Assembly: GCA_041390365.1 (NCBI GenBank) | Contig: JAWKQB010000005.1 | Span: forward strand, 32,457-96,456 | Length of the DNA: 64,000 bases | Direction: 5' to 3' | Source: Syntrophotaleaceae bacterium | GTDB lineage: Bacteria; Desulfobacterota; Desulfuromonadia; Desulfuromonadales; Syntrophotaleaceae | Part shown: piece by piece, positions 29,725 to 51,741 of the stretch | Position numbering within the stretch: position 1 is the first letter of the stretch | Layout: every line of letters begins with the position of its first letter | Made by a program: the position numbers and the translations under genes | Notes under the pieces: generated by a model | Told to the model about the DNA's origin: nothing | Databases searched by the model: none | The model's input: the letters and a program-made list of their open reading frames with translations, nothing else

Positions 29725-29752
29725 ATTACGCATTACGTATTACGAATTACGG
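29725..29752. repeat. heptamer tandem array, unit ATTACGN (4 units), overlapping the VKOR-DsbA stop region
   Basis: tattacg cattacg tattacg aattacg. Confidence 0.9.
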
Positions 29753-31036: not shown

Positions 31037-32005
31037 TCAAGGAATTATTTCAACCCTTGCGGCGGCTCGGCGGGAGTCAAGGAATTCCTTGATCTGTGGC
31101 CCGGCCTTGGCTGCCCGCACTTCCTGCAGGGCCCTGGATCTGAGATTGTCGAAAGCAGGAAGCTCGGCCACCTGATGTTCCCGGACGAGGATGAGATGGA
31201 CGCCGTCATCGGTCACAACCGGTTCGCTGATCTCACCCGCCGCCAGGGCAAAGGCCACCTCGGAAAAGGGGCGCACCATTTCGACGAAGGTGAAGCAGCC
31301 GAGATCCCCGCCCTGCTCCCTGCTGGGGCAGTCGGAGTGTTTTCGGGCCAGCTCGGCGAAATCCTCCCCGGCCAGGAACCGCTTCCGAAGTTCCCCGATC
31401 TCCCGGCGGACGCGCTGCTGTCCCGACTGGCCCTCCTCGTCGGCAACCGCTTTCAGGATGTGGGCCGCACAAACCTTGTCAGGGCTGCCGAGACTGCCGG
31501 CATGCTCCCGATACCAGGCCTGGGCTTCCTCTTCGGTGACTTTCTGAGCGCGAATGAACCTGACATCGAGAAAATCGCGGATCATTTCACTTCTTGTCAG
31601 CTCTTTGAGCAGCTGCATTTCGTTGACGCCGAGTTCCTGCAGTTCACGGGAAAAGGCCGCTTCGCTGCGGAATTGCGATTTCAGGGCGGCGAGCTTTTTC
31701 ATGGCCGCGGGTCCGTTCGGCTTCCAGCCGGCGTTCACCGCTTCCTGATAGAGAATTTCCCGCCGGATCAGGCTTTCCAGAAGATCCTCGCGACCGACCG
31801 GCGGGGCAACCGTCACCAATCCGCCGGGAGCCGCCTGGCGCAGTTGACGCCGCCACTGCCATTCCAGCTCCCCGGCGGTGATCGGGACATCATTCACCCG
31901 CGCAATGACCCGCTCCGGATTCTGTTCGCCGGCAAAAAGCGGGGAGACACTTAAAAGGAGGATGCAACCAAGCAAGGTGAAAACAAGGGGATATCGAAAT
32001 AGCAT
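31037..32005 (-). CDS. secreted parvulin-type peptidyl-prolyl isomerase (SurA/PpiC-like; EpsD-type position in PEP-CTERM loci)
   Basis: Signal peptide MLFRYPLVFTLLGCILLLSVSPLFA. SurA-like N-domain. Rotamase core AAHILK...FAELARKHSDCPS...GGDLGCF....MV.PF..VAF.L..GEIS.PV.T..G.HLI. Confidence 0.8.
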   Translation of the reverse strand: MLFRYPLVFTLLGCILLLSVSPLFAGEQNPERVIARVNDVPITAGELEWQWRRQLRQAAPGGLVTVAPPVGREDLLESLIRREILYQEAVNAGWKPNGPAAMKKLAALKSQFRSEAAFSRELQELGVNEMQLLKELTRSEMIRDFLDVRFIRAQKVTEEEAQAWYREHAGSLGSPDKVCAAHILKAVADEEGQSGQQRVRREIGELRKRFLAGEDFAELARKHSDCPSREQGGDLGCFTFVEMVRPFSEVAFALAAGEISEPVVTDDGVHLILVREHQVAELPAFDNLRSRALQEVRAAKAGPQIKEFLDSRRAAARVEIIP

Positions 32006-32139: not shown

Positions 32140-32943
32140 TCACTGCAACGTATTCTTGATCACTTTCTGCCGATAGTTCTGAACCAGGTGTTCGACTTCA
32201 ATCTTTTTCAGGCCGGTGATCGGTTCCTTGGCCAGCAGGGCGGAAAACACTCCCTTGTTTTCGTAGGCGTCGAGCAGGTCGGAGGCAGCCGCGCTCAATT
32301 CGGCGTTGTGGGCCGTGCAGCGGTCCCGCTGCCCGGTAGTGTACTGGAGCTTTTTCTCCAGCTGCTGCCCGGTCGCCGCCAGCTTATCGGACTTATCGTT
32401 GGCCTGTTTCAGGGCGGTTTTCAGCTGGCCGTTTTCAGTCTTCAGCTGTTCGTTGCGGGCCTTCTCCGCCGTCATCTTCTCGTTCGTCCGGGCGATCTCC
32501 TGCTGCAATTCCCGGATCTGCCGCTGGGCCTTTCCCACCGAGGTCTGGCTGTTCTGCACCAGCCCGTCGTACTCCTCCTGGAGCTTGTCCAGCTGGGTTT
32601 TCAGGGTTTCGCTCAGCCGCTGGGCCTGTTCGGCCCGGACCCTTTCTTCCGCGTGGCGGCGCTGCAGCTGGTCCATTTGGCCATTCAGTTCGGCCACCTG
32701 TTGAAGATGGGCCCGCTGGGTCCTGCTGTGCTGAAAAAATCCGAAGCCCCCCCCAGCCATGGCAAACAGCAGTACCCCGATCAGGGCGAACATCCAGGGC
32801 CGTGCGGACTGCCCGGAGCCCTGCTCCTGCGGATCCGACGCTCGGGGCGGTTCCAGTCCTGAAGGTGGGGCGATCTTCACGCTCGGCGTTGCGGGCGCCT
32901 CCGGTGATGGTGCGTTGTCATTCTGCCGGCCGGGAATTTTCAT
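32140..32943 (-). CDS. membrane-anchored coiled-coil protein, function unknown
   Basis: Trimmed to the ATG at 32943 (MKIPGRQNDN...). One TM (PWMFALIGVLLFAMAGGGFGFF), then about 170 aa of heptad-like Q/E/K-rich sequence. Confidence 0.55.
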   Translation of the reverse strand: MKIPGRQNDNAPSPEAPATPSVKIAPPSGLEPPRASDPQEQGSGQSARPWMFALIGVLLFAMAGGGFGFFQHSRTQRAHLQQVAELNGQMDQLQRRHAEERVRAEQAQRLSETLKTQLDKLQEEYDGLVQNSQTSVGKAQRQIRELQQEIARTNEKMTAEKARNEQLKTENGQLKTALKQANDKSDKLAATGQQLEKKLQYTTGQRDRCTAHNAELSAAASDLLDAYENKGVFSALLAKEPITGLKKIEVEHLVQNYRQKVIKNTLQ

Positions 32944-32960: not shown

Positions 32961-33037
32961 CGTAAGTCGTAAGACATAAAACGTAAGGGGTAGAGATTAA
33001 AACCAATTACGCTTTACGCATCACGCTTTACGATGTT
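32961..33037. repeat. 11 in-phase heptamers switching from CGTAAGN to the complementary CGCTTTA/CGCATCA orientation
   Basis: cgtaagt cgtaaga cataaaa cgtaagg ggtagag attaaaa ccaatta cgcttta cgcatca cgcttta cgatgtt. Confidence 0.9.
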
Positions 33038-34545
33038 TAAAACTTCGCATTCAGATCCACCTGCAGGGTGTCGACGCCGAGCTGTTCCCGCTCGATCTCG
33101 TCGGATGACTGCCACTTGGCGCTGAGCCAGGTATTCTTCATCAGACCGAATTCTGCGCCGGCCACCCAGCCCTTGGAGTTGGTGCCGCCGAGGTGGAAGT
33201 CGGAATCGGTGAAGGAACTGAGTACTGCGTCGGCCTCGATGTATCGATAGTAGCCGTAAACGTTCCAGCGTCCCAAATCGTCGACCTTTTCGTGGCCGAT
33301 GGCGGCACCGAACATATAGCCCATATCCTGGTCGCCTTCGAAGAATTCGAAGCCGCTCCGTTCATCCACCTCCTCTTTGTCATAGCCGATATTCTTGACA
33401 TACTCGCCGAGAAACACCAGATGGATGGGATCCCATAAAGCGATGTCGAGGGTGGCGAGGATGTCGAGTTCATGGAAATCGGCGGCAAGGCCGACGATGC
33501 TGTCCCCGCCGAGGTTCAGAATCGGGGTATTGTCAAGTTGCAGGGACCTGGGGGAGGCATCCTCCTCGAGAGAAGTATCCCCTCCAAGGGGGTCCGTCTG
33601 CTGCCGCCCCTCGGTGTGGGTGAAATGGTAGTAGGCGGCGGCCATGTTGAAACGGACCAGGTCATGGCGGCCAACGTTGATTCCGACCTGCCCGCCATAG
33701 AGCCATTTATCCTTTTCAGACCGCTCGATCTCCTGAATGGGGAAGGCACCGACCGTGGCGAAGGCTCCAAGCCAGTCGAGGTACTGCTGGCGGTAGGTAA
33801 GGGCCAGTCCCTCGAAGTTCAGGTCCTTGTCCCAGATTAGGTCGGTAGAGAACCAGGGGTTGGGGATACGGCCGCCGGTGACGGACAGCAGCGGGATCGG
33901 CCGCCACTCCAGATAGGCTTGGTCGAAAAGCACGCTGTCCTTGTTGAAGGTATCGCCAAGCGTGTCGTTGGTGGAGATTGGATCATCGTCGTTGCCGGTC
34001 GCCAGGCGAAAGGCCGCCTTGAGTTCGTCGGTGACCTGCGCGGCCAGAGAGATGCGGGCACGGTAGCGGAAACGCTGACGATCCTCGGTGGTGTTGATAA
34101 TGGAGTCAAGATCATTGGGATCCGGAAAAGATTCGAAATTCCCCTCATCAAAATAATCACCCTGATACCGCAGGCGGATGTCGCCGCCGATCTTGATCCG
34201 ATTCAGCCAATCGGGCAGTTTGATGGCCGGCTGCGCGGGTGCAGCCTGGGTGGCAGGGGCGGGCGAGGAGGTCAGCCGGACTGAACCGTCCGCACTTTCG
34301 ACCGCTCTCACCGGAGCCCTTTCCTCCCGGATTTCGGCTGCAGGCACCTCAACCACAGACCGCTTCTGCAGCATTACGGCCTCGTCCGCGCTCAGCACCC
34401 CCTTCTCCCGCAACAGATCGATCAGGGCGGACAGATCGACATTGCCGCCACCGCCGGAAACCGCGGCAGAGGAATGCATGGGTGCCAACAGAAAACATCC
34501 GATCATCAAAAGCCCGCTTAAAAACAGCGCAAATGGCTGCAGCAT
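33037..34545 (-). CDS. outer-membrane beta-barrel (porin-like) protein, not a TonB-dependent receptor
   Basis: ATG at 34545 with an AGGAGGA SD. Signal peptide MLQPFALFLSGLLMIGCFLLAPMHSSAAV. Aromatic-rich alternating strands and a C-terminal ...VDLNAKF beta-barrel signature. About 500 aa with no plug-domain or TonB-box pattern. Confidence 0.55.
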   Translation of the reverse strand: MLQPFALFLSGLLMIGCFLLAPMHSSAAVSGGGGNVDLSALIDLLREKGVLSADEAVMLQKRSVVEVPAAEIREERAPVRAVESADGSVRLTSSPAPATQAAPAQPAIKLPDWLNRIKIGGDIRLRYQGDYFDEGNFESFPDPNDLDSIINTTEDRQRFRYRARISLAAQVTDELKAAFRLATGNDDDPISTNDTLGDTFNKDSVLFDQAYLEWRPIPLLSVTGGRIPNPWFSTDLIWDKDLNFEGLALTYRQQYLDWLGAFATVGAFPIQEIERSEKDKWLYGGQVGINVGRHDLVRFNMAAAYYHFTHTEGRQQTDPLGGDTSLEEDASPRSLQLDNTPILNLGGDSIVGLAADFHELDILATLDIALWDPIHLVFLGEYVKNIGYDKEEVDERSGFEFFEGDQDMGYMFGAAIGHEKVDDLGRWNVYGYYRYIEADAVLSSFTDSDFHLGGTNSKGWVAGAEFGLMKNTWLSAKWQSSDEIEREQLGVDTLQVDLNAKF

Positions 34546-34660: not shown

Positions 34661-35344
34661 CTATCCTCTCGCCGAAATTTTCACATACATCGCCAGCGGC
34701 ATGTCCGGCGGGGGGGGCTCCCGCAACTGGAGGACGGGCAGCACCTCGAGCAGGGCCCGGTCCATCCGGTCGTCGCCGGAGGAATCGACCAGCTTGAAGT
34801 CGATTATGCGTCCGGTGGCATCGAGCTCTATCCGGACCTTGGCCTTGTTGTCCCCTTCGGGCCAGCCTCCGGATTGTTCGAGAACCCTGCGCATCTCCCG
34901 GCGGATCTGGTCTTGAAGCATGCGGGTGTACCAGGCGTACTTGCGCAGCAGCGAACTCTCTCCGATGTCGCCCCCGATGAGGGACCGACCGCCCTTCTTG
35001 CCGACCAGCCCGAAACCATCCCCCCCGGCGCTCCCCTCGGCATCGACACCGAGGTTCTCGCCGGGCGGCGGCTCATCGGAACTTTCGGCCACATCCTCCT
35101 GCGCCTGCGGTTCCGGCTCGATGATCTCCTCCTCTTCCACCTCGGGAGGAGGCGGCTCCTCCTCGGGCGGAGGCGGGGGCGGAGGCGGCTTGACCAGGGT
35201 TACCATGGTCATCTGGCCCTTAGGCTTGATCTCGCCGGAAAACAGCAACGCCTTGAGCATCCAGATGCCGAGGGCCAGGAAAAGCACCACCACCGCAATG
35301 TAGGCGATCCAGATGGGCTGGAAGCCTTTGTTTTTCTTTGCCAT
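34661..35344 (-). CDS. tonB: TonB-family energy transducer
   Basis: Trimmed to the ATG at 35344 (MAKKNKGFQPIWIAYIAVVVLFLALGIW). Pro/Glu-rich spacer PPPPPPPPEEEPPPPEVEEEE. The C-terminal approx. 80 aa are TonB_C-like. The track extension to 35479 is a translation of the GAGTCCC array. Confidence 0.7.
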   Translation of the reverse strand: MAKKNKGFQPIWIAYIAVVVLFLALGIWMLKALLFSGEIKPKGQMTMVTLVKPPPPPPPPEEEPPPPEVEEEEIIEPEPQAQEDVAESSDEPPPGENLGVDAEGSAGGDGFGLVGKKGGRSLIGGDIGESSLLRKYAWYTRMLQDQIRREMRRVLEQSGGWPEGDNKAKVRIELDATGRIIDFKLVDSSGDDRMDRALLEVLPVLQLREPPPPDMPLAMYVKISARG

Positions 35345-35361
35345 TATGAAAATCCGTATTT

Positions 35362-35508
35362 CAAGTCCCGAGTCTTTAATACGGTCCCGAGTCCCGAGTC
35401 CCGAGTCCCGAGTCCCGAGTCCTGAGTCCTGAGTCCTGAGTACTGAGTCCTGAAGCCTGGACCTTGGACCCGGGACCATGGACCGCCTTTTGACCTTGGA
35501 CCGCCCCT
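35362..35508. repeat. 21 in-phase heptamers (147 bp) filling the ExbD-TonB spacer; the unit drifts GAGTCCC -> GAGTCCT -> GGACCNN
   Basis: ggtcccg agtcccg x4 agtcctg x3 agtactg agtcctg aagcctg gaccttg gacccgg gaccatg gaccgcc ttttgac cttggac. Confidence 0.95.
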
Positions 35509-35914
35509 ATTTAACCAACTTCTGCGTCACCAGACCCAACTGAGTGATGTCGAGTTTCATCAGCACATCGAGTATGCCGATGATCTGGCTGTAAAACACC
35601 TGTTCGTCGCCGCGGACCACCACCGGCAGATTGGGGTCGGCGGCCTTGTACTGCCGCAGCATGGTTTCGAGTTCGGCCATGGTCACCGGGTAGCTGTCCA
35701 GGTAGATCTGTCCGTCGGCGGCCACGGTGATCGCCTTGGTGCTCGGCTTGACCTCGCTGACCACATTGCTCGCCTTGGGCAGGTTGATCTTGATCCCCTG
35801 CACGGCGGAGGTCACGGCGATAATGAAGACCACGAGCAGGGTCCAGGCCAGGTCGAGCAAAGGGGTGACGTTGATATCGTCCATCACCTTCTGGTCGTAA
35901 AGATCGCGTCTCAT
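35507..35914 (-). CDS. exbD: ExbD/TolR-family biopolymer transport protein
   Basis: 135 aa. INVTPLLDLAWTLLVVFII single TM with the conserved Asp, and a periplasmic ExbD fold pattern. Stop/start is 1 nt from the exbB-like gene. Confidence 0.8.
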   Translation of the reverse strand: MRRDLYDQKVMDDINVTPLLDLAWTLLVVFIIAVTSAVQGIKINLPKASNVVSEVKPSTKAITVAADGQIYLDSYPVTMAELETMLRQYKAADPNLPVVVRGDEQVFYSQIIGILDVLMKLDITQLGLVTQKLVK

Positions 35915-35915
35915 G

Positions 35916-37688
35916 TCAGTCCCCGAATTCCTGGTCCACCATGTTGGCGAACTGGTCGACGAACAGGCCGAGGTCGGCGGCGATGATCTTCACCTTGCTG
36001 GCCAGGAAGTTGTAGCCGAACAGGGCCGGGATGGCCACGATCAGGCCGGCGACGGTGGTTGCGAGGGCCGAGGCGACCCCCGGTGCGATGGCCATGATGC
36101 TGGCTTCCCCCGCCAACGCCAGGGCGGCGAAGGTGTTCATGACCCCCCAGACGGTGCCGAGCAACCCGAGGAAAGGGCCGCCGCTGATGGCCAGGGTCAG
36201 CAGTACCAGGCCGTTGTTGATGCGGCGGTTCTGCTCCATGTAGCCGTTCTCGAGAACGGTGCGGAAGATGTTGAAAGCCTTGGACGAGAGTTTCGGATTC
36301 TCCAGGTGGGCATGCTTTTCACCCCACTGGCGCAGATCCTCCACCCCCTTGCGGAAGATGGTGAACAGGGGGGAATTGCCGTATTCCTCCTCCTTCCCGT
36401 AAAGGGCGTCGAGATCATGGGCATGGCTGAAGGCGTTCAGGAACTGCTCGTTTTCCCGCTGCATCAGGCGGAAGGCGTAGGTCTTGTTGACCAGCAGCAT
36501 GACGCTCAGAGCACCGAGCAGAAAGAGCAGGCCGATGATGATCCAGCCGTCGGCGGTGATGTTGTCGGCCACGGTGGCGATAAGCAGGGAGGAGACGCCG
36601 CTGCCTTCACCGGCTTCGATGCTGCCGTAGCCGAGCAGTGCGCTGGTCGGCCCCTGGCTCTGATAGAGCGCGGTGAACCACCCGGGCGACCGGGCGGCCC
36701 GCCCCAGGATCACGTCGTCCAGATCTCCCCGGAAGGAACGGGTGCCGTCGGGGGCGCCGCCGAGCGCCAGATCGCCGGGGAACCGGGACAGGGCGAAGGG
36801 AATGGAACCGCTTCCGGACTCGCGGCCGTCGAGATAGAGGGTTACCGCCCGCTCGGGGGTGATTGTCACCGCCAGATGCTGCCAGGACCCGGCGGTCAGG
36901 TCGCCTGCCATCTGCAGGGCGACGACGGTCTCCCCGGCGGCCATGCGGACATAGGGGCGCAGACCGTCGACGGAAATCTGCAGACTGCGCTCTTCATTGC
37001 CGCCCTGAAACAGTACGGCATTGTTCTGGGCATCCGCAGGCCGAATCCAGACGGCAAAGGTAAAGCCGGCGCTGAAATCGAGGGAAGGTGAGGACGGGAT
37101 GGAAATCCGGTCGCCGTCCTGGCGAAGGCTGAGGCCGTTGCCGGCCAAACCTGGAACCCCGAGCGCTCCGCTGAAGGTTCCGGGGTGATTGCCGTAGGCG
37201 GTGGCGTCGCGGGGGGCTCCTTCCGCCTGGTCAAAGTGATAGACCAGCGCCTGGTCGGCGTCGAAGGTTCCGCCCGCGTCCTGGGCATCGGCTGCCTGCG
37301 CGTTGCCCCAGTACATCCAGATTGTTTCTTGCACCGAGCCTGCGGTGAGTCGGGGCACCTTGACCCAGACCAGCGCCATCTCCTCAGCAACACTGAACCG
37401 CTCGACGTGGTATTTCAGCGGGGTCTTGTCATCCGCATCGACGAAGCGCAGATCGGTCCCGTCCTCCTTGCCGCTGCTGAAATCGAAGTTGCCCGAATGC
37501 AGCCGCACCAGCACCGGCATGTCGGTCTGGCTTTCGGCGAGACCGGCGGCGCCGGCATCGAGGGTGATTTTCTGCCGAAACTGCCAGTTCTTGTCCCACC
37601 AGGCCGATGCCGCCCCCGGCATCATCCCGAGCACAAGCCCCAGCAGCATCCAGATCGCGATTTTTTTGTTAAAACCATTTAAAAACAC
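35916..37688 (-). CDS. DUF2341 + LamG (concanavalin-like) periplasmic domains fused to a MotA/TolQ/ExbB proton-channel domain
   Basis: GTG start with a GGAGG SD and a signal/TM segment. WWDKNWQFRQKITLD...LRFVDADDKTPLKYHVERF (DUF2341 pattern). FTFAVWIRP...WQHLAVT...LYLDG...GDLDDVILGRAARSPGW (LamG). C-terminal LLGLLGTVWGVMNTF...PGVASALATTVAGLIVAIPALFGYNFL (ExbB/TolQ). Confidence 0.8.
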   Translation of the reverse strand: MFLNGFNKKIAIWMLLGLVLGMMPGAASAWWDKNWQFRQKITLDAGAAGLAESQTDMPVLVRLHSGNFDFSSGKEDGTDLRFVDADDKTPLKYHVERFSVAEEMALVWVKVPRLTAGSVQETIWMYWGNAQAADAQDAGGTFDADQALVYHFDQAEGAPRDATAYGNHPGTFSGALGVPGLAGNGLSLRQDGDRISIPSSPSLDFSAGFTFAVWIRPADAQNNAVLFQGGNEERSLQISVDGLRPYVRMAAGETVVALQMAGDLTAGSWQHLAVTITPERAVTLYLDGRESGSGSIPFALSRFPGDLALGGAPDGTRSFRGDLDDVILGRAARSPGWFTALYQSQGPTSALLGYGSIEAGEGSGVSSLLIATVADNITADGWIIIGLLFLLGALSVMLLVNKTYAFRLMQRENEQFLNAFSHAHDLDALYGKEEEYGNSPLFTIFRKGVEDLRQWGEKHAHLENPKLSSKAFNIFRTVLENGYMEQNRRINNGLVLLTLAISGGPFLGLLGTVWGVMNTFAALALAGEASIMAIAPGVASALATTVAGLIVAIPALFGYNFLASKVKIIAADLGLFVDQFANMVDQEFGD

Positions 37689-37761: not shown

Positions 37762-40700
37762 TTAAAGCACAAACCCAGTGACCTCGACATCCAGCCACTT
37801 GCCGAGGAAGTCGTCCACCACCTTGGCGGGGGTCAGACCATCCCGCGGGCCGAAGCTGGCCGCCTGTTCGACCAGACTGCTGACTTCGGTCAAACTGGAA
37901 ACGCCGGCCAGGGCACCAAGTCCCGAGGTGCCGGAAGAGGTCGGAACCCCGACGGAACCGAGGGAGAAGCTGATGTTCTGAGCATTGCGCACCTCGGTGG
38001 CGGCCAGCAGAATGCGCCCGCCGGCGATGCCCGCCTCACCGGCGTCGATGATCCCCTCGGGAGCGACGAGGATGATGTCGCCAGGATCGGGCTTCTCCTT
38101 TATCCCAGCCACACCGTCCGGATCGTAGGTCAGGGCGCGGATGCCGCTGCCAACAGCAGGCGGAGAATAGGAAACTCGATATTCGCCATACTCATCCACA
38201 TATATAGTTTTGTCTGTCTGGCTGATGGCAGTGCGGGAACCACGGCCGGCATTAATGTCCCCCTGGTCGGCCCAGACAAAAATATCGCTTCCGCCATAAG
38301 TCATGACTCTCGATTCAAAGACGTTCAGATCACCGATATTCAAGATCGAAATATCGCCTCCCGCAGTGGTAAAAATACCCGTGCCCTTGTTGGTCCCGCT
38401 GTCGTTGATGCTGCTGCGGCCCACGTCGATATCCCCTGCAGCTGCGATGTAGATGTTGGAGGCTCCAGCAGTGGTGCTGATCAATGATTCCACCATTTTG
38501 AGATAACCTCTGCCAGCCTGGCGTTCCGTAATCCCCGGCGCCGGGCCAAAAACCATTTCGATGAGCTCGCTGCGTGCTTTTTCGACGATGGCATTGGCAT
38601 CAGCCGTGCGGCCGTCGGCCTGGGCCTCGACCAATTCCTGTCCGTAAACCTTGAGTGCGGCGAAAAACACGGCAGCGTCCTCCAGGGAAAAGTTCTCTGT
38701 TGCGTCCGTGGTGGAAACCTTCGTATCGTAACCCACCAGCACCAGCAGGTCGGCCCCCTCTGACCCCAAAGCCGAGTTTTTTGCACTGCCGCTGGCAACG
38801 ATTCCTCGCGAGGTTCCGAGATCAAGGCTGTACCCGGCCTGAACAATCAGCGCACCGGGGCCGCCCTGTTCAATGCCGAACAGGGATTCCGTGGCCGTAT
38901 TTTTCTTCAGTGCCGACTCCACCACGATACTGTTGCTTGCGGAAATGAGAGAAACATCATCCTCATTGAAGTTTTGGCCTACGTACCGAAGATAGCGAAT
39001 ATCTCCTCCGGCGGTGATGTGTGCCATCTTGGGCAACCGAAAGGCGATGTTCTCGATGTTGCGACCGGCTGTTATCTCGATGGCCTGGCCGTCGTCCTTG
39101 TGCAGGTCGCTGTTGCGATTTGACGCCTCGGCACTGAAAAACTGACTTTTGTCGATGGACCCATCCGTGGCGTAAACATCTGCGGGATCGTCATCGTTCA
39201 TGATAATGCCAGAAATGGTTTGCCCAACAGACTCGGCTCTAATGTCTCGCCCGGCAACCAACTGCAGATTGCCCTCGCTGGACGGGAGCATTCCGAAAAG
39301 CTGCTTCAACACGATGTCGCGGCCCGCTTGGATCACCACGGTTGCCGGCAGCACGCTTCGCCACCAATCCTTTGCGTCGTCGGAGGGATAAATAGGATGT
39401 TCGCCATACAGGACAACGTCCCCACCGATGCTTTGCAGGAACATACTGGTCTCCTCGGTCATACCAAGGGTCCAAGTGGTACTGGAGGATGTCATGCCCT
39501 CGTGATCAGGATGAGCAATGAAAGGATCGACCACTGATGCGTGCAGATCTCCCTGAGCGGTGACCTGCAGGACAGTATCGAGTATTTCGAAGGACTGCTG
39601 GTCGTCGGTTGCACCTATATTACCCAGGGAGGCAATAGAGGCCGTTCCCTGCCGGTTGAGAAACCTCCCCGACAGGTCGCCGCCGGCGCTCAGCGTAAAG
39701 TTGCCGCTGCCGAACGTACCGGCCTGGGTAGTGAAGTCGGCGCCTGTCCGCACCGTCAGGTTTCCACCTCCCAGAGTGGCCAGTCCCTGAGTGGTACTCG
39801 ACCCGTCGTAACTGGGTTGCCAGGAATATTTCCTCACTCGTCTGCCATTGATCATGACCAGCTTTGAAGTTACCTTATCCCAACCATTCCTGTTGTATCC
39901 CCCGATGATCGAACCATCCACATCGACAAAAACATCGCCACCGTGATCGTAATCCCAGTAATCAGTTGCCCCCGCCTGCGCCTCTCCCAGGGTGCGCACG
40001 GTTCCCAGTGTGTTTCCGCTCTGATTGAGGGACAGGTTACCGCCGATCCGCAGATCGATGTCGCCGGTGGCGGTCTGGATGACCCCGCCGTTGATGGTCA
40101 GGTTACCTTCGGTCCTTACCTCTACGGCACCAGAATAGGAACCGATGTTGAAGGGGATGGCCGAAGAGATCATGGTGCCGCCATTGACTGCGGCGGTGCC
40201 GATATGAATGCTGTCACCGGCAGCCAGCGTGACCGGCCCGCTTTCGCTGTAGACCTGCAGATTGTTGCCGATGGTGAGGGTCCCCGTATCGCGAACCGTG
40301 GCGGTAAAATCGGCGGCAGCCGGATCTGCGCCTGCCACCAGACTGATACCCCAGGAATCCTGTACGGGGCTCGTGGTCATTACTCCATTGCCATCCCTGA
40401 CAGTGCCAGTCACTGTCATGTTGCCAGCAGCACGAACCACCAGGTTGCCGAGTACGTTCGAATCCGAAAGATTCAACGCACCGACCGTCAGGTTCCCGTC
40501 GGACGTCGCCTCGATTCCGGCTCGCAACTGCAGTGCCTCGATGTCGGTCGATTCGAGAGCCAGGTTATCGAAGAGATCTTCCGCATTGGCGATCCAGGCT
40601 TCGGCATCGGCCAGATAGGAATTGAAGATGATCTGATTCAAAGGACCGTCGACCGAGTAGGTTTCCACTCCTTCGGCAATGACCTTATCGGCCCCGATGA

Positions 40701-43700
40701 TCGTGCCCTGCAGATTTATGCCGGTGCTGCCGGCTACGCCGTCCTCTCGGGCAGCTCGGAAATGGATTGATCCGCCTTGACCGCTGCCCGAAGCATCAAT
40801 CAGCGCACCAGAAGCCATGTTGACCCACCCGTCACGGCTGTTCAGAACCACCGAACCGCCCTCGCCTGCGTCACCGGAAACATCGATAAGGCTGCCTGAG
40901 GCAAGAGTGAGATCCTGCCCGGAGTGAAGCTCCACCGTTCCTCCGGAGTCCCCGGACGCATCAAGTGTTCCCGCCAGGCTCACCCCACCTGCGTCAGCGG
41001 CCAGGTAAACCTCCTGCGCCCTCACGATATCGGCCGCGGCGATGTTCAGGTCGCCGCTGCGCGCACGCACGGCGATGCGTTCATCAAAACCTCCTTCATG
41101 CAGTTGCGTATTGAGGGAGGAAAAATCGGCAACAGCGGCAATGTCCATATCGAAGGAGCCGCCATGGCCATTCTCCGACCCGCGCCGGCCGCGTAATTCG
41201 CCGGCCAGATTCACCCCGCCTGTGCCATCAACCAGTTTGATGCTCCCCGCATCCCCCTGCGCACCACCGGAGACGTCGATCAGGGAGCCTGCGGCCAGAT
41301 CGATTTCACCGTCTTCGGCGATTACCTGGACACGTCCACCGGAAAAATAGGCGTTGCCTCGGTTCAGAATCTTTCCGTTTTCCTCAACAGACACACTGTC
41401 CGAGCCGTTCAGGGTCGTGGTCCCCGCGGTATTGTCGACGATGCTGTCGACCCGGATGGTGCCTGCAGCGATTTCGAAGCGTCCTCCGGCATTGCCGGCT
41501 TCCGGGATACCGTCATCACCACCGAGAATGGCGACGGTACCGATTCCGCCGTCGATGAGGTAATCAGCTGCTTCATAGGTATCCAGGCTGTTGCGCTCTC
41601 CGGTTACCTTCACCAGCGGCGTGCTGACAGTCAAATCTCCATCCAGGGTGAAGGACCCCTGTCCCGTAACCGAAACCTTCTCGGCGGCCTCGATATTGAT
41701 GGTTCGGAATCCGTCGGTGCGGACATCGCCGTTCGCCATCTGCACGACGTTGGCCACCAGGGTGAGATTGCCGATATCCTCGGCGCTGCCTTCGTTCGAT
41801 TTTTGCCCGCTGTTGCCCAAGATAATGGTTTGGGCGGCAAGACGGACATCGCCTCCATTACCCACCAGTCGGGCCTCATCGAGGTAAAGCTGGTTGTTCA
41901 CCTCCAGGTTAAAGCTGCCGTTGAATGCTATGTCCGATTCGCTTTTCAGGCCGATATTGGCGATATTTTCGAACAAGGACCAGAATTCCCTGGTAATGAC
42001 CAAACCCTGCTCTCCACCGGTGTCATCGCCCTCGACGAAAACGATCCGCTTGCCCAGCAGGTTGACGGTGCTGTTGTCGATCTGGAAATGACCCTCCAGG
42101 CCATCCCCCCGCAGTTCGAGATCGTTCGTGGCCAAATTCAAGGCATCGGACACATGAACCTTCGATCCTTCCCCCAACACTACCTCGACATCCGGAGCAT
42201 TGAAGGTGACCTCTCCGGCCTCGATGGTCGAGTCCTTCATCAGATAGATGCCGTTTTCGCCATCGGCCAGATCTCCATTTTTGCCGCAAGTCAGGGTAAG
42301 GCTGGTCCCGGCAACCTGCAATTCGCTGCCTTCCTCCAGGGTGATTTTGGTGGTTTTGTCCTCCTGACCCAGCTCGACGGCGGCAAAGCCGGACAGGGCT
42401 CCACCGTCGATCAGCAGTGTGTCCAGATGTTCCGCGGACAAGCCATCGGCAAAACCGAACTCATCCCAGGCGATAGCCGAGGTTCCTTGGCTGGAAGCCG
42501 TGACCACCACCTCTGCGCCGCTGAGAGTCATGCTGCCGCCGGTATACAGTCCCTCGAGGGGCGACGCGTTGAGGGTGCCGTCAACAACAGTGGTCTCTCC
42601 CAGCAGGGAAATGCTGCCGGCATCCCCTTGGGCGAAGGCGGCCACTTCAAAATCACCTTCCGCCAGCAGGTCCCTGAGTTTGCGTACCGAATAGCTTTTG
42701 AGGGCTGCCGCATCTATGTCTGTCCCCTGCCAGGTCTGGTAACCGGCAACGATCCGGTAGCCTTCCTCGGTATACTGAGCGCCCCCCGCCTGGTAAATAG
42801 TCCCCAGGTCCGCAAGCACCAAAGCATTTTCGAACTGGGAATACTCATCGGCCAGCTCGGCGTATTGCTCGGCCATCAGGGCGTACTGCTCGGCCTGGCG
42901 GCCGTAATCGGCCGCCTCCTGCCGGTATTGCTCGGCCAGAGCCGTATACTGCGCTGCGGAGATTTCGTCTTCGGCGCCAGCGGCCAAAGCCTCGTTTTCC
43001 ACGGCCAGAGCCGCGCTTTCCGCTGCCAGTTCGGCCTTTTGCCCCGACTGCCGGGTGTAATCCTGCCGGATCTCGGTGTAGGCCGAGGCTACCAGGGCAT
43101 AATCCTCGGAAACCACCGAGTAGACTCCGTCAGCAACTCCCTCGACCCCCTGCAGATACACCGCTTCGCCCGGCAATTGCTGATCAGGGTCGGGCACCAC
43201 GATCAGGGCTCCGCTCAAAGGATTGGTGCTGCCGTCGACCCCGGGCTGAAACTGGTAGGCGAAAATCGCCCCACCGCCCGAGACGTCGATCTGGGCCCCT
43301 TCAGCCATCAGCACCTGTTCCCCGGAAATGGTCACCCCATGGCCGAGTGCCTCTGTAACCTCTTCATGATCGCGCTCGCTCGCCGAAGTATCCTTTGTGT
43401 CATTGAACCAGGTTCCATCGGCGAGAGTACCGTAGGCGGTCGCCCCGGACCCCGTCGTGCGCAAAAGACTGCCTGGGGCCAGGTAAACCCGCCCGGAATT
43501 TTCATCGTCACCTTCGCCTGTGGCGATTAAGGCTACAGTTCCGTAGGGCGCTTCGATTGTGCCCCGATGCTCAATACCTCCCCCGGCCTCCAGCGTAATG
43601 CTGCCGCCAGCGGATGTCAGGGCTCTGGTGCTGTCGATAGAGCCAGGCAAGGTCGTGATTTTGCCGCCGATCTGGAACTTGAAATCCGCGGTAAGGGCTG

Positions 43701-46700
43701 AAGAAAAACTATCCTGATCGGCTAAACCTGATCCTGCAAAGGCCGCGAATTCGCCTGCCAGATCATCGGGCACCTCGGGGAATATCCTCCCGGTCATTAT
43801 AAGGTCGCCGCTGTGGGCCAACTTGCCGGACCAGGTCAAACTATCTGAATCATCACGAAGACGAAGCTGGTAATCGAAATCGCTTACCCGCAATTCCCGG
43901 TCGGCCCCCAGGTAGACATTATCGAAGCCTGAAAGCTGAAGGTCCCCGACCAGGTCGATCCATTCACCGGCTAGAACCAGTTGTCCCTCGCCAATAGCCA
44001 CCGCATCGGCATCCTCAAAGACCCCCACCGAATTGATCAAACGCACCCAGGGAGACTCCAGCCATACGTCCGCATCTTCCCCGGCCGTAATCCTTGTTGT
44101 ATCCAGAACCAGGGAACGGTCTAATCGGGCGCTAATTTCACCGTTGAACGACAATCCGCTATAGCCGCGCAGAGTGAGGGCATCGAACCCGCCGGCAAGC
44201 CAATAATCAAAGTCCTCGCTGTCCAAAGACCAGTTCGTGGTCAAGTCGGTGTTGATCAAGGTCAGAGAACCACCCTGACCACTGGCCCTGTAAGCTTTGG
44301 CGAGGAGTTGACCACCCAGTTCAAGATTTGCGAAGGACAAGGTAATCTCCCCCGGATCCCCGCCGATGGGCACCTGGTTCAGTCGATGGTATTTATCCCG
44401 TATCCAGGTACGGGTGTCAGGTGCGGCGGATACATCAACAACCGCTCCTTCGGCAATCAGCAGGGTATCGCTCGAGGTTATAGTCACCGAGCCCCCGTCA
44501 TGGGGGGACTGCGACCGGACCAGACCTGAGGCAGGTGCGGTGCCGGGCTCATTCCAGCCGCCCGCCAGGATGCGGGCCTCTTCACCGAGAATCAGGGGGT
44601 CATACCCCAGCGTGGCGAAGGTACTCGAAGCCGTCACATTCACCTCACCAGCCAGGGCTTCCAGCACACCGTTGATCTCCACCCCTGGACCGGAAATGCC
44701 GATCTGCCCGGTCGGCCCGACACTCAGGGTGGCACCGCTTTCCACTATGGTTCGGGCGATCCTCGTTTCTTCCTCTGGCACAGAGGGGTCCGGCTTGGCA
44801 TCGATTGGTTTACCGGAGGCCAGTGTGATTGTCGATGCACCGAGGTATCCAGGCAGCGGCTGTCCATCGGCGGCATTGGGAACCTGCCAAGCCGTGCTGC
44901 TGGGGAAGATGCCCAGAGCTTCGTAACGGGATTGTTCGGCACTGGTTTCTGTGTTGAATTCGCTTCCCGGTTGAAGCCGGGCAACCGAAGGTTGAAGATG
45001 GACACCGCTTTTTACAATCAAATCTCGAGCACTTTTGAGATTGATACGTGTGAAGCCGCTGTCTCTCAATTGGGTGGTGCTCAGAACCAGTCCTTCATAC
45101 CCGGGAGGCAACTCGCTGTCCGCCGTCATACCGCTGTCACCCACCAAAGCAGCGGTAACAGTTAAATCCGACGCATGAAGATTGAGTTCGCTGCCTGTCT
45201 GTCCGATCAGGGCCAGACCGGTCAGCTCACCGTCCAGGAACAGGGCGTCGCCCTGGATGGTCAGGCTGCCGGCATCGCCCCCCTCAATGTCTCCGTCCTC
45301 CGACCACTGGTAGCCTCCGCTGACGTCAATGCGGCTTCCTTGGGCCAACACAAGAGCGCAGACCGGTGAAGCCAAATCTGAAATTGTGACCGTTCCACCA
45401 TCGAGAATGCCCTGCACGATGCTGTCGCTGCCGCTTACAAGGCGATTGTCGTTCCGTTCCCCGGACACGTCGATCACCGCTTTTTCGCCGAGATAGAAAC
45501 GGCTTTCATATTCTCCATAGCGGGGGTCAGCTTCAGTGGTTGAAGTTACGTTTTCCAGGAGGGAGTAGGCCAGGTCTCCCGACGGAACATACACCCTGCC
45601 CTCCTGAATGATGCGCCGGGCATAAACCGATAGACTTCCCCCCGCCTGCAACCCGATCTCTGCATTTTCAGCCAGGGTGAATTCTCCATTGGTTGATACG
45701 GTCAGGCTGCCCAAACCGGCCTCTTCGATCTTCCGTGCAGAAATGATATTGATCTGATTCTCATTGAGTTCGTCTGATTCCGAAAAATCACTCAAAGACG
45801 TAGTTGAATCGACAACCCGCACTGATTCGAGGATTGCATCGCGATCGCCCGGACTATTGTTATCCCCAATCAATTCCCCAAGCTGCAGGAAACCTCCCTT
45901 GGGCCGTAACAGGCTGAGAAGCCCCTTCGCCTCTTCTTTATTGTCGTAAATCTGATAGGCGCCTATTGTGGCCTGACCCTTGAGGACCCCGTCGAGGACG
46001 ATACGGGGCGCGATGAGTTTCAGAATGCCTGCATCGGCTCCGGCGACATGGTCGGGGATATATTTTTCGACGTTCTTTGTCGCACTGTACCTGCCCCACT
46101 GAGAGGCACTGGCAATGTCGGGTAAGGAACTGCCGGAAACGAGCCCGGTAACTTCGACAGTTCCGGAATCATATTCGATGCCGCCACCGGAAAAATCCAA
46201 CAGCGCTCCATCGCGGACGATAATATCAGCGGTGTTGCCGGCTTCCTGGTTGAGACCGGAATTGATGATTATGGTACCGCCGGTGGTGGCAAGCTCGGCT
46301 GCGGTCTGCTCCTGGGTGTTCAGAACGCCGCTGACATCCCCGATGGCCGAACCCTCGGTAGCCAGGAAACGAATGGTCTGACCCTGCAGTATCCCGCCTT
46401 TCTGGGCAAAATAATCCCGCAGTTCCAGGCTGTTGAGGGTTGTTTCGAGCACCAGGGATTCGGCGCCCTTGGTGACCCAAAGACCGCTGACGTCGATGAT
46501 GCTGTCCTCAGCCAGATAGACTCTCTCACCTGCATCAATAGTTACATTGCCCGAAGGAGCGTCGATGATGCCGCGATGTTCCACTCGCGCCACCGTGTCT
46601 TCGCTGTCATAGGAAATGCCGTGAATCTTGATGTTGGCATCAACCTGAATATTTTTATCCACTACATAGGTCTCAGTGGACGGGGTAATCGGGGTACTGG

Positions 46701-47850
46701 TACGGCTATTTTCCCCTGTACTGACCAGTTTGGAGGCCATCAGTTCTATCTGACTGGCTTTTTCAGGCGACGTGGCGGCCATTGCGTCCCAATTCTGGTA
46801 TACTTCATTGCCGTACATTCCGATTAATCCAAGATTGGCCTCCAGAGCACCTCCTTCATATACTATTTCTACTAATCCTTGGTTGTTTATCTGCTCACGT
46901 ACGTTCTCCCAGTTTTGTTCATTGATTGTTATCTCGTTGCCTTCTGCATCTATAAAAACGATGTCAACATCCTCTCCTCTTTTCAGATTTTCCAGATAAT
47001 TCCAGTTTTCATTGGATATATTTTTTCCTTCGCTTTTTGTTTCTTTCAATACAACCCGTCCTAACTGATTAACTACCTCGCCGGCATTCTCCTGAACCAC
47101 ATTTACCCTATAGCCCAGCTCGATGCGCGTCTGAGACTCAGTCTCCTGCTCCAGCAAAACCTTCGTACCTGCAGCCAATCCGATCTGTCCCGCGGTTGCA
47201 CTGATGGTGTCCTCGTTGACGACCTTTTGGCCCAGCAGAAAAATCCGTCCACCAACCTCTGTGGCGGTGATAGTTCCCTGATTGCGGATGCCGTAGCCGG
47301 AGTCGGTTGCCGCGTAGTCGGCAAGACCCATGTAGTCTTCCGCCTGAAAGGTCAGGTTGTTGTTGATAAAGTTGGTATCGCTGATATTGAGGGTGGAAGC
47401 GGTCAGGGAGCCGACGTTGACCTGGGAGCCTTCGCCGAAGAGGATGCCGTTCTGGTTGATCAGGTAGATATGGCCGTCTGCTTTGAGCGTGCCGTAGATC
47501 TGACTGGGGTTTTGGTCGTGGATGCGATTGAGGGCGGCCCAGCTGCTGTTGCCCTGCTGCTCGAAATAGGTGGTGGCACCCTTGCCGATGTTGAAGGATT
47601 CCCAGTCGATGATGACTTTGGAGGTTTTCTGGTGGATGGTCAGAGTATCGCCTGAATAGTTGGCTTCGGCCACAGTGTCCGGGTCCACGCCTGAGGGAAC
47701 CGCCACATTGAACCCCGTGGGCAGGGTTCCTTCCGGCACATTGGGCAGGTCGGCGGCGTTGTTGAAAGCCGAATACCGGCCGGCATAACTCGCCACGGGT
47801 GCGAAGGTCAACAGCCACACCAGCCATGCAGCACATATTTTTCGCAACAT
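37762..47850 (-). CDS. giant two-partner-secretion exoprotein (TpsA, filamentous-haemagglutinin-like beta-helix adhesin), 3362 aa
   Basis: Signal peptide. N-terminal TPS domain (TLTIHQKTSKVIIDWESFNIGKGATTYFEQ...AALNRIHDQNPSQIYGTLKADGHIYLINQNGILFGEGSQVNVGSLTAST). The remaining approx. 3000 aa are Gly/Asp/Ser/Thr-rich beta-helix-type repeats. Confidence 0.9.
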   Translation of the reverse strand: MLRKICAAWLVWLLTFAPVASYAGRYSAFNNAADLPNVPEGTLPTGFNVAVPSGVDPDTVAEANYSGDTLTIHQKTSKVIIDWESFNIGKGATTYFEQQGNSSWAALNRIHDQNPSQIYGTLKADGHIYLINQNGILFGEGSQVNVGSLTASTLNISDTNFINNNLTFQAEDYMGLADYAATDSGYGIRNQGTITATEVGGRIFLLGQKVVNEDTISATAGQIGLAAGTKVLLEQETESQTRIELGYRVNVVQENAGEVVNQLGRVVLKETKSEGKNISNENWNYLENLKRGEDVDIVFIDAEGNEITINEQNWENVREQINNQGLVEIVYEGGALEANLGLIGMYGNEVYQNWDAMAATSPEKASQIELMASKLVSTGENSRTSTPITPSTETYVVDKNIQVDANIKIHGISYDSEDTVARVEHRGIIDAPSGNVTIDAGERVYLAEDSIIDVSGLWVTKGAESLVLETTLNSLELRDYFAQKGGILQGQTIRFLATEGSAIGDVSGVLNTQEQTAAELATTGGTIIINSGLNQEAGNTADIIVRDGALLDFSGGGIEYDSGTVEVTGLVSGSSLPDIASASQWGRYSATKNVEKYIPDHVAGADAGILKLIAPRIVLDGVLKGQATIGAYQIYDNKEEAKGLLSLLRPKGGFLQLGELIGDNNSPGDRDAILESVRVVDSTTSLSDFSESDELNENQINIISARKIEEAGLGSLTVSTNGEFTLAENAEIGLQAGGSLSVYARRIIQEGRVYVPSGDLAYSLLENVTSTTEADPRYGEYESRFYLGEKAVIDVSGERNDNRLVSGSDSIVQGILDGGTVTISDLASPVCALVLAQGSRIDVSGGYQWSEDGDIEGGDAGSLTIQGDALFLDGELTGLALIGQTGSELNLHASDLTVTAALVGDSGMTADSELPPGYEGLVLSTTQLRDSGFTRINLKSARDLIVKSGVHLQPSVARLQPGSEFNTETSAEQSRYEALGIFPSSTAWQVPNAADGQPLPGYLGASTITLASGKPIDAKPDPSVPEEETRIARTIVESGATLSVGPTGQIGISGPGVEINGVLEALAGEVNVTASSTFATLGYDPLILGEEARILAGGWNEPGTAPASGLVRSQSPHDGGSVTITSSDTLLIAEGAVVDVSAAPDTRTWIRDKYHRLNQVPIGGDPGEITLSFANLELGGQLLAKAYRASGQGGSLTLINTDLTTNWSLDSEDFDYWLAGGFDALTLRGYSGLSFNGEISARLDRSLVLDTTRITAGEDADVWLESPWVRLINSVGVFEDADAVAIGEGQLVLAGEWIDLVGDLQLSGFDNVYLGADRELRVSDFDYQLRLRDDSDSLTWSGKLAHSGDLIMTGRIFPEVPDDLAGEFAAFAGSGLADQDSFSSALTADFKFQIGGKITTLPGSIDSTRALTSAGGSITLEAGGGIEHRGTIEAPYGTVALIATGEGDDENSGRVYLAPGSLLRTTGSGATAYGTLADGTWFNDTKDTSASERDHEEVTEALGHGVTISGEQVLMAEGAQIDVSGGGAIFAYQFQPGVDGSTNPLSGALIVVPDPDQQLPGEAVYLQGVEGVADGVYSVVSEDYALVASAYTEIRQDYTRQSGQKAELAAESAALAVENEALAAGAEDEISAAQYTALAEQYRQEAADYGRQAEQYALMAEQYAELADEYSQFENALVLADLGTIYQAGGAQYTEEGYRIVAGYQTWQGTDIDAAALKSYSVRKLRDLLAEGDFEVAAFAQGDAGSISLLGETTVVDGTLNASPLEGLYTGGSMTLSGAEVVVTASSQGTSAIAWDEFGFADGLSAEHLDTLLIDGGALSGFAAVELGQEDKTTKITLEEGSELQVAGTSLTLTCGKNGDLADGENGIYLMKDSTIEAGEVTFNAPDVEVVLGEGSKVHVSDALNLATNDLELRGDGLEGHFQIDNSTVNLLGKRIVFVEGDDTGGEQGLVITREFWSLFENIANIGLKSESDIAFNGSFNLEVNNQLYLDEARLVGNGGDVRLAAQTIILGNSGQKSNEGSAEDIGNLTLVANVVQMANGDVRTDGFRTINIEAAEKVSVTGQGSFTLDGDLTVSTPLVKVTGERNSLDTYEAADYLIDGGIGTVAILGGDDGIPEAGNAGGRFEIAAGTIRVDSIVDNTAGTTTLNGSDSVSVEENGKILNRGNAYFSGGRVQVIAEDGEIDLAAGSLIDVSGGAQGDAGSIKLVDGTGGVNLAGELRGRRGSENGHGGSFDMDIAAVADFSSLNTQLHEGGFDERIAVRARSGDLNIAAADIVRAQEVYLAADAGGVSLAGTLDASGDSGGTVELHSGQDLTLASGSLIDVSGDAGEGGSVVLNSRDGWVNMASGALIDASGSGQGGSIHFRAAREDGVAGSTGINLQGTIIGADKVIAEGVETYSVDGPLNQIIFNSYLADAEAWIANAEDLFDNLALESTDIEALQLRAGIEATSDGNLTVGALNLSDSNVLGNLVVRAAGNMTVTGTVRDGNGVMTTSPVQDSWGISLVAGADPAAADFTATVRDTGTLTIGNNLQVYSESGPVTLAAGDSIHIGTAAVNGGTMISSAIPFNIGSYSGAVEVRTEGNLTINGGVIQTATGDIDLRIGGNLSLNQSGNTLGTVRTLGEAQAGATDYWDYDHGGDVFVDVDGSIIGGYNRNGWDKVTSKLVMINGRRVRKYSWQPSYDGSSTTQGLATLGGGNLTVRTGADFTTQAGTFGSGNFTLSAGGDLSGRFLNRQGTASIASLGNIGATDDQQSFEILDTVLQVTAQGDLHASVVDPFIAHPDHEGMTSSSTTWTLGMTEETSMFLQSIGGDVVLYGEHPIYPSDDAKDWWRSVLPATVVIQAGRDIVLKQLFGMLPSSEGNLQLVAGRDIRAESVGQTISGIIMNDDDPADVYATDGSIDKSQFFSAEASNRNSDLHKDDGQAIEITAGRNIENIAFRLPKMAHITAGGDIRYLRYVGQNFNEDDVSLISASNSIVVESALKKNTATESLFGIEQGGPGALIVQAGYSLDLGTSRGIVASGSAKNSALGSEGADLLVLVGYDTKVSTTDATENFSLEDAAVFFAALKVYGQELVEAQADGRTADANAIVEKARSELIEMVFGPAPGITERQAGRGYLKMVESLISTTAGASNIYIAAAGDIDVGRSSINDSGTNKGTGIFTTAGGDISILNIGDLNVFESRVMTYGGSDIFVWADQGDINAGRGSRTAISQTDKTIYVDEYGEYRVSYSPPAVGSGIRALTYDPDGVAGIKEKPDPGDIILVAPEGIIDAGEAGIAGGRILLAATEVRNAQNISFSLGSVGVPTSSGTSGLGALAGVSSLTEVSSLVEQAASFGPRDGLTPAKVVDDFLGKWLDVEVTGFVL

Positions 47851-49575: not shown

Positions 49576-49594
49576 CGCTTTTCCTCCATATAAA

Positions 49595-49705
49595 ATTCGT
49601 AATTCGTGATGCGTAAGGCGTAAGGGGTAAAATTCGGTCAAAAACCTTGGCTTCATGGCTACAAGCCTTTCTCACCAATTACCTGTTACGCCTTACGATT
49701 CACGG
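49595..49705. repeat. inverted pair of heptamer arrays (ATTCGTA/AGGCGTA versus GTTACGC/CTTACGA)
   Basis: cgtaaggcgtaa (49612-49623) is perfectly complementary to ttacgccttacg (49686-49697). The arrays flank a spacer of about 40 nt. Confidence 0.9.
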
Positions 49706-51705: not shown

Positions 51706-51741
51706 AGGCACTCCGTCAATTCGCGTCATTTATCCGGGCGG

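Follow-up and report, generated by a model that had tools for sequence, protein, structure and literature searches.

A DUF2341-LamG-ExbB stator gene beside a two-partner secretion pair in a Syntrophotaleaceae bacterium: architecture, conserved neighbours and possible role

Introduction

Type V secretion is the textbook case of export without an energy source, and the 5:2 motors of the Ton and Tol type are known mainly for their part in uptake and envelope integrity. Genes of both kinds lie together in the pdtA locus of Pseudomonas aeruginosa, and the present study concerns a locus of apparently the same type, found in a 64,000-nucleotide stretch of contig JAWKQB010000005.1 of a Syntrophotaleaceae bacterium (this whole stretch is called the window). 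At the center of the locus is a gene for a stator subunit of the ExbB/TolQ type, which carries an N-terminal head composed of a DUF2341 and a LamG domain, and which is flanked by the genes of a two-partner secretion (TPS) pair, the transporter TpsB and the giant exoprotein TpsA.

The P. aeruginosa locus has been described in several pieces. Llamas et al. (2009) listed among the targets of sigma-VreI PA0690 (tpsA), PA0692 (tpsB), PA0693/4 (exbB2/exbD2), PA0695 (a tonB homologue), PA0696-8 and PA0699, a PpiC-type peptidyl-prolyl isomerase (PPIase), and had already seen homologues of the TPS, exbBD and PA0696 genes travelling together in other bacteria (PMC2729926). A 2016 paper reported that one promoter transcribes phdA, pdtB, exbB2D2, tonB4 and PA0696-PA0701 (PMC4971064). 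The locus, a member of the PhoB/sigma-VreI regulon, is switched on by phosphate starvation and lies beside an alkaline-phosphatase secretion system; its ExbB2-type motor has been termed "still uncharacterized" in the literature. ExbB-like subunits with a DUF2341 appendage, termed uncharacterised, are mentioned in an evolutionary survey (PMC12505986); in our literature search only this survey named the appendage, and no functional study of DUF2341, DUF3739 or the ExbB-TPS pairing was found.

Results

The window block and the pdtA locus

The genes of the window block lie on one strand and encode, in order, two exported FKBP-type proteins, TpsB, TpsA, the stator, ExbD, a TonB/TolA-like protein, a Porin_5 protein, a coiled-coil protein, a PPIase and a thioredoxin-like protein. 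The spacers within this row are short, and no terminator-like site was found on the coding strand between the genes of the block. The PAO1 locus, in which PA0693-PA0695 are ExbB2-ExbD2-TonB4, shares with the window a TPS exoprotein, TpsB, ExbB, ExbD, TonB, a porin, a protein of unknown function and a PPIase. It additionally has a YbjN-family protein, phdA and vreAIR-like sigma/anti-sigma genes, all three of which are absent from the window, whereas the window has extra folding genes of the exported FKBP and thioredoxin type.

The whole block was also found on a conjugative IncFIB plasmid of Klebsiella quasipneumoniae, pKqq_SB98_1 (NZ_CP084804.1, 116733-150466; locus L085), where the order is extracytoplasmic function (ECF) sigma factor, FecR-like protein, TpsA (TPS and DUF3739), TpsB, ExbB, ExbD, TonB, Porin_5, a hypothetical protein, YbjN, PPIase, a second hypothetical protein and LysR, which reproduces the published PAO1 order gene for gene. 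The plasmid-borne ExbB is 612 amino acids long, consists of DUF2341, LamG and MotA_ExbB, and aligns to residues 26-589 of the window protein with 35% identity. Among the best 120 matches of a homologue search started from a gammaproteobacterial protein, there was no entry named as P. aeruginosa; orthology with PA0693 is therefore argued from synteny and from the Klebsiella plasmid as a proxy, and on these grounds the window block is assigned to the PdtA/PdtB-ExbB2 type (PA0690-PA0699). The DUF2341-LamG-ExbB fusion itself is not new: public databases list it under the name 'DUF2341 domain-containing protein', it is included in PMC12505986, and it corresponds to the ExbB2-type gene of the published pdtAB-exbB2D2-tonB4 locus. 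Given these matches, what we describe is a further member of a recorded but unexplained family and locus; the window adds to it a clean example of the Desulfuromonadales type, with a head cassette in single copy, DUF2341 as its constrained half, and a terminal motif shared among the TpsA proteins.

The Klebsiella block adjoins IS26/IS3 elements and an ars operon. The stator gene occurs in 12 PLSDB records, which include a second Klebsiella plasmid as well as replicons of Cupriavidus, Burkholderia, Ralstonia, Variovorax, Methylomagnum, Methylosinus and Aquabacterium.

Architecture and predicted fold of the stator protein

The initial annotation had proposed, from the sequence, that the gene at 35916-37688 encodes a signal segment, a DUF2341 module, a LamG jelly-roll and an ExbB/TolQ stator. 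This architecture was indeed recovered by Pfam search with all domains above the curated cut-offs, namely DUF2341 (PF10102) at residues 76-163 (73.5 bits; cut-off 23.4), Laminin_G_3 (PF13385) at 192-334 (77.9 bits; cut-off 27.6) and MotA_ExbB (PF01618) at 469-571 (94.9 bits; cut-off 22.9), and the three peptides that had been quoted were all located in the translation. Hydropathy placed the signal peptide at residues 10-28 and the three transmembrane helices at 382-400 (TM1), ~495-517 (TM2) and ~538-560 (TM3). Among 81 homologues, A29 of the A-S-A|WW cleavage site is nearly invariant, W30 and W31 are invariant, and so are the motif WWxxxWxxR at the mature N-terminus and the residues T512, T519 and T545 of TM2 and TM3.

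The last 219 residues matched solved TolQ chains over their full length (81 bits by PDB sequence search; TM-scores of 0.83-0.86 by Foldseek), which upholds the description of the C-terminal ~220 residues as a three-helix stator, whereas only partial alignments to solved ExbB chains were obtained by either method. In agreement, TolQ ranked above ExbB in NCBIfam, although both scores were under the equivalog cut-offs (141.4 against 221 bits for TolQ, TIGR02796; 75 against 206.2 bits for ExbB, TIGR02797). Overall, the profile match, the predicted three-helix N-out topology and the presence of an ExbD partner with its Asp residue place the stator, at the level of sequence, in the MotA/TolQ/ExbB family. 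The genome holds 10 matches to the MotA_ExbB family, so that the window stator must be regarded as a specialised paralogue.

The head is predicted to be periplasmic because it follows a signal peptide and because TolQ and ExbB have an N-out topology, and to this extent the earlier placement of the head agrees with our analysis. From the end of the signal peptide and the position of TM1, the mature periplasmic head would comprise ~345 amino acids (30 to ~375), for which the solved TolQ chains, at 220-232 amino acids, leave no room. An AlphaFold2 model, built on the alignment of 81 sequences, had a mean predicted local confidence score (pLDDT) of 88.7 and consisted of two beta-sandwiches (37-150 and 186-359) followed by the helical stator, with low confidence in the linker at 362-368. 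The head thus appears, from model and sequence, to be real, folded and periplasmic, its topology and cleavage being predictions.

The lectin-type fold that had been ascribed to the LamG half was borne out by Pfam and by Foldseek, in which it resembled generic jelly-rolls of the LamG/pentraxin type (E ~1e-9), and the PDB sequence search matched it to the LamG domain 4qvs. It is to be noted that the same search retrieved LamG relatives alone and none for DUF2341, and that for the DUF2341 model folded in isolation (pLDDT 86) no match in the PDB surpassed E 0.27 and TM 0.33. No diagnostic ligand-site motif for carbohydrate was identified in the LamG half. The binding domains of clostridial neurotoxins, which ranked high in Foldseek, were set aside as generic LamG-like jelly-rolls that carry no functional inference.

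Conservation of the block and its partners

A scan of one genome per species revealed at least 587 relatives of the stator protein, spread over about eight phyla, and the best 80 of these came from Thermodesulfobacteriota, Nitrospirota, NC10, Planctomycetota, Verrucomicrobiota, Myxococcota, and alpha-, beta- and gammaproteobacteria. All of the best 120 database homologues have the same three-domain architecture. Phylogenetic profiling, which had been suggested as a check on the fusion, was applied to 301 evenly sampled genomes from the phylum of the window. DUF3739, a domain of the TpsA C-terminal region, was present in seven, and every one of the seven had DUF2341 on the same contig, six of them within ~1 kb.

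Neighbouring genes were then counted in 83 related loci, collected by iterative searches with the window proteins, and only loci with enough flanking sequence were included in each count. ExbD was present in 80/80, the TonB-like gene, located after ExbD, in 73/74, Porin_5 in 63/66 and the coiled-coil protein in 57/62. A TPS gene lies directly upstream of the stator in 64 of 70 loci, being TpsA in 45 and TpsB in 19. Three of the six loci that have no such gene directly upstream (L034, L035 and L065) possess a giant DUF3739 open reading frame (ORF) elsewhere in the genome, another (L018) has none, and in a further one (L038) TpsA is located further upstream; a giant DUF3739 ORF is likewise found elsewhere in the genome of L037, the upstream flank of which was too short to be counted.

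These counts bear on two further statements of the initial annotation. The near-universal TonB/TolA-like gene gives no support to the suggestion of direct recognition by the head rather than action only through TonB; the head therefore comes on top of a TonB-like transducer instead of standing in for it. As for the second LamG domain that had been noted at 23361-25238, the domain is real (Laminin_G_3 at residues 86-240, fused to GHL10), but the implied link to the motor did not hold, since polysaccharide genes, searched with the extracellular polysaccharide (EPS) proteins of the window, occur near the block in only ~13/84 related loci. EPS linkage was accordingly rejected as a core feature of the block and, because the TPS genes are found nearly everywhere, the conserved partner is the TPS system and not the EPS cassette. 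The LamG-GHL10 fusion gene itself lies inside a Wzy/flippase/GT4 polysaccharide cluster and shows no conserved association with the motor block.

Two variations of the block were seen. In four betaproteobacterial loci (L060, L063, L065 and L069; Azonexus, Methyloversatilis, Derxia and a metagenome-assembled genome, MAG), two consecutive ExbD genes follow the stator, and in Methylovulum miyakonense HT12 a single scaffold carries the complete block twice (L049, L059).

The head as a single DUF2341-LamG cassette

When the head alone was searched against 1.84 billion cluster representatives (E<=1e-30), 1339 matches were obtained, the top ones being giant proteins of 1,000-7,800 amino acids that contain as many as 21 tandem copies of the entire DUF2341+LamG unit, with 25-34% identity. 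These tandem repeats indicate that the stator head represents a single copy of a two-domain cassette that is widespread. Within the ExbB2-type family, identity to the window protein averages 56% for DUF2341, 35% for LamG, 47% for the TolQ-like part and 79% for TM2-TM3; it is thus DUF2341, rather than the lectin-like LamG, that forms the constrained half of the head. The giant repeat proteins reach 7,867 amino acids, and a few of them also have FG-GAP or CarboxypepD_reg domains.

A terminal motif in TpsA and other clues to coupling

The TpsA/TpsB pair has, by its sequence profiles, both hallmarks of two-partner secretion (type Vb), the TpsA scoring 89.7 bits for the TPS domain and 83 bits for adhes_NPXG. 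The tail of the window TpsA consists of DUF3739, a linker rich in Ser, Gly, Ala and Thr, and the end FLGKWLDVEVTGFVL. In TpsA proteins of related loci this end follows the consensus hydrophobic-L-x-V-E/D-V-x-G-F/Y-G-D/E (xLxVEVxGFG), with the alternating pattern of a beta-strand; the strict motif was present in 40 of 51 tails, 2-26 residues from the end, nearly all others had a clear variant, and the motif also occurs in the TpsA of the Klebsiella plasmid. The C-terminal domains of TonB and TolA bind TonB boxes and TolB, respectively, by beta-augmentation. By resemblance, the TpsA terminal motif would fit a strand captured in this manner, and it could serve as a periplasmic handle on the fibre. 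The shared motif makes the coupling hypothesis directly testable.

The N-termini of TpsB homologues have no conserved motif, and hence offer no candidate TonB box. In the window TpsB, POTRA1 starts ~12 residues past the predicted signal-peptide cleavage site, which leaves no room for an N-terminal plug helix like that of FhaC, and in the homologues only a variable low-complexity linker precedes POTRA1. Neither Porin_5 nor TpsB, the sole barrel proteins of the block, matched the Plug or TonB_dep_Rec profiles, and no conserved TonB box was found on the Porin_5 protein.

Comparison with other motors

The Tol-Pal operon of E. coli has the order tolQ-tolR-tolA-tolB-pal-cpoB. This order is echoed in the window by the stator, a TolR-like protein, a Pro-rich transducer, an outer-membrane partner and a coiled-coil protein, but there is no TolB or Pal in the window block. 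With ExbB-ExbD-TonB the window shares MotA_ExbB, ExbD, the TonB_2 C-terminal domain and a Pro-rich spacer; it differs from the canonical Ton system in having no plug-containing transporter and in a TonB-like transmembrane helix that lacks the His residue. The C-terminal part of giant TpsA proteins, such as the FhaB prodomain and CdiA in Bordetella and E. coli, is thought to be periplasmic during or after export. Those systems, unlike the window, have no dedicated motor, and retention of the DUF3739 end in the window is put forward by analogy.

A likeness of role is offered by the AglRQS-Glt machinery of Myxococcus xanthus, in which a TolQR-type motor, the TonB-like GltG and outer-membrane proteins act on a surface adhesion complex, not on uptake (PMC3169522). 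Glt has no TPS pair and no DUF2341/LamG head, and the likeness lies in the described role; by analogy, it may nonetheless be taken as precedent for TolQR-type motors and TonB-like proteins in roles other than uptake.

Discussion

The explanation that we favour, with moderate confidence, is a motor dedicated to the TPS fibre, with a head that works alongside TonB as a periplasmic docking site or structural crown. The stator would be the A subunit of a predicted proton-driven 5:2 motor of the TolQR/ExbBD type, referred to as the ExbB2 type, in which the channel keeps the conserved Thr residues and the partner ExbD the transmembrane Asp of a proton path. After removal of the signal peptide, the ~345 residues of one DUF2341+LamG cassette would lie in the periplasm, joined to TM1 below by a short flexible tether, and the five heads of each motor may form a periplasmic crown. 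The block would specify an envelope-spanning apparatus devoted to the TpsA fibre, its parts being the TonB/TolA-like rod, the plug-less, stalked Porin_5, the inner-membrane coiled-coil protein, the PPIase and the TPS pair. The C-terminus of TpsA would stay in the periplasm as in FhaB and CdiA, where its end may be held by the TonB-like C-terminal domain, the head crown, or both, and proton flow would control a step in the display, tensioning or release of the fibre.

In a stronger version, secretion is energised or force is transmitted, in that the motor, through the TonB-like rod and the five-fold crown, grips the terminal strand of TpsA. The gripped fibre would then be pulled, rotated or gated at TpsB or at the stalked porin, resulting in completion of export, in tension or in release. 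We consider this version possible but doubtful. Coupling would matter, if real, because type V secretion is held to use no energy source: a subclass of two-partner secretion mechanically coupled to the proton motive force would overturn that rule. The tight genetic linkage of such a motor to a giant secreted fibre, seen in hundreds of species, is a hint of a step that needs energy or of a surface organelle that bears force, and the species with the block include P. aeruginosa, soil Burkholderiales, methanotrophs and Geobacter, with copies also on conjugative plasmids.

Several observations weigh against a motor that drives or tends the fibre. Characterised TPS systems need no energy source, and a review states that type V secretion is powered by none (PMC5422565). 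The TonB-like transmembrane helix in the window has no canonical TonB His (SHLS type), and among its homologues only 13 of 67 have any His near the helix, at no fixed position; coupling to the stator may therefore differ from the textbook mechanism. The LamG half, proposed as the lectin, is the least conserved region of the protein. One locus, in an NC10 MAG (L018), has the motor block but no detectable DUF3739. Lastly, transposon mutants of PA0695 and PA0696 behaved as wild type in the sole phenotype tested, VreI-induced lethality in zebrafish (PMC2729926), a result that neither supports nor excludes a role in secretion.

Of the rival explanations, a purely structural or regulatory crown is compatible with the dedicated-motor explanation, and nothing speaks directly against it. 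Here the head would have no external ligand but would pack around the periplasmic domains of ExbD or around the TonB-like rod, and could set the height of the stator, serve as a gate or plug for the channel, or bring the complex together. The higher identity of DUF2341, which adjoins the mature N-terminus, relative to the TolQ part (56% vs 47%) is what would be expected of contacts within the same complex, and giant multi-repeat proteins use the DUF2341+LamG cassette as a generic building block. Standing alone, however, such a crown leaves the strict coupling to DUF3739-type TpsA unexplained, and both the packing and the particular roles are rated as improbable.

Nutrient uptake is given a similarly low probability. 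In this scheme, TpsA would capture an external substrate, for instance a phosphate-containing polymer, which the Ton-like motor imports via Porin_5, in the manner of HxuA/HxuB/HxuC. The block always includes a TonB-like protein and an outer-membrane barrel, its P. aeruginosa counterpart falls under PhoB/sigma-VreI control and neighbours the alkaline-phosphatase secretion system, and HxuABC indeed pairs a TPS system with a TonB-dependent transporter. However, Porin_5 lacks both the Plug/TonB_dep_Rec match and a conserved TonB box, TpsA is a fibre of >3000 residues and not a small scavenger, and the periplasmic head is given no role.

Quite unlikely, in our view, is a true lectin head that binds a periplasmic polysaccharide, either nascent EPS or peptidoglycan, and thereby links the motor with glycan export or with the cell wall. 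Carbohydrate-binding proteins often have a LamG fold; the block adjoins polysaccharide genes in the window, in Geobacter pickeringii and in one delta MAG; and a lytic transglycosylase of the MltB type lies beside the window block, while an SLT gene comes after the block in L002/L003. Nonetheless, the scarcity of polysaccharide genes near the block (~13/84 loci) contrasts with the nearly universal TPS genes, LamG domains bind proteins too, and DUF2341 has no solved structural relative. A Zorya-like anti-phage motor was rejected, since PADLOC gave no match for the stator, ExbD, TonB-like protein or porin, and only coiled-coil noise for a 288-residue protein.

Coordinates and other features of the window

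The positions of the features discussed are collected in Table 1. The ExbD gene starts 1 nucleotide past the stop codon of the stator gene, and its Asp21 lies within the motif TPLLDLAW, which is conserved among 82 homologues. The longest annotated ORF of the TonB-like gene reads through a heptamer array in the spacer that follows ExbD, and its true start is probably the ATG at 35344.

Table 1. Positions of the stator gene, its domains and the neighbouring genes in the window.
Feature	Positions	Strand	Size, evidence or remarks
ExbB2-type stator gene (signal peptide, DUF2341, LamG, TolQ-like three-helix channel)	35916..37688	(-)	590 amino acids, GTG start
Signal peptide, residues 1-29, A-S-A cleavage	37602..37688	(-)	hydropathy and AxA site; A29, W30, W31 conserved
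DUF2341 beta-sandwich, residues 30-170, best conserved periplasmic part	37179..37601	(-)	Pfam; lone-domain AlphaFold2 pLDDT 86
LamG (Laminin_G_3) jelly-roll, residues 171-360	36609..37178	(-)	Pfam; 4qvs sequence match; Foldseek LamG/pentraxin-type
Flexible linker and amphipathic pre-membrane helix, residues 361-381, ending in invariant D380-G381	36546..36608	(-)	pLDDT <50 at 362-368
TolQ-like stator part, residues 382-590, invariant T512, T519, T545	35919..36545	(-)	profile matches, homologue alignment, Foldseek
TpsB transporter, POTRA_2 and ShlB barrel	47968..49656	(-)	ShlB 64.8 bits, POTRA_2 51.1 bits
Giant TpsA, 3362 amino acids, TPS domain 63-246, DUF3739 3187-3304	37762..47850	(-)	profile matches
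TpsA conserved C-terminal strand motif WLDVEVTGF, residues 3352-3360	37771..37797	(-)	TpsA tail comparison
ExbD/TolR-type partner, 135 amino acids, transmembrane Asp21	35507..35914	(-)	ExbD 83.3 bits
Heptamer tandem array, 9.6 copies, ExbD-TonB spacer	35384..35450 (wider 35362-35508)	.	perfect phase, GTCCCGA / GGACTCR
TonB/TolA-like transducer, probably 227 amino acids from ATG 35344	34661..35344	(-)	one transmembrane helix without His, Pro/Glu-rich rod, TonB_2 C-terminal domain
Porin_5 outer-membrane barrel, N-terminal periplasmic helical extension, no plug domain	33037..34545	(-)	profile match, hydropathy, homologues
Membrane-anchored coiled-coil protein, conserved small C-terminal domain	32140..32943	(-)	profile scan, hydropathy, homologues
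SurA-like parvulin PPIase, frequent block member	31037..32005	(-)	profile match, related loci

The folding genes at the two edges of the block appear, from their distribution in the related loci, to be lineage-specific. The multi-helix membrane protein with a C-terminal thioredoxin-like domain (29740-30711) has a counterpart in only one of 84 related loci (L004), and the FKBP-thioredoxin fusion (49700-50896) and the second FKBP-like protein (50893-51729) have none. Within tpsA, 21-nucleotide tandem repeats at 42848-43029 encode a helical stretch in the middle of the fibre that is rich in Ala, Glu, Gln and Tyr (..AEQY..). The MltB-like lytic transglycosylase gene (SLT_2, 343 bits) occupies 52035-53153 on the plus strand, divergent from and upstream of the block, and in L002/L003, where the SLT gene follows the block, a cassette resembling a type II secretion system comes next.

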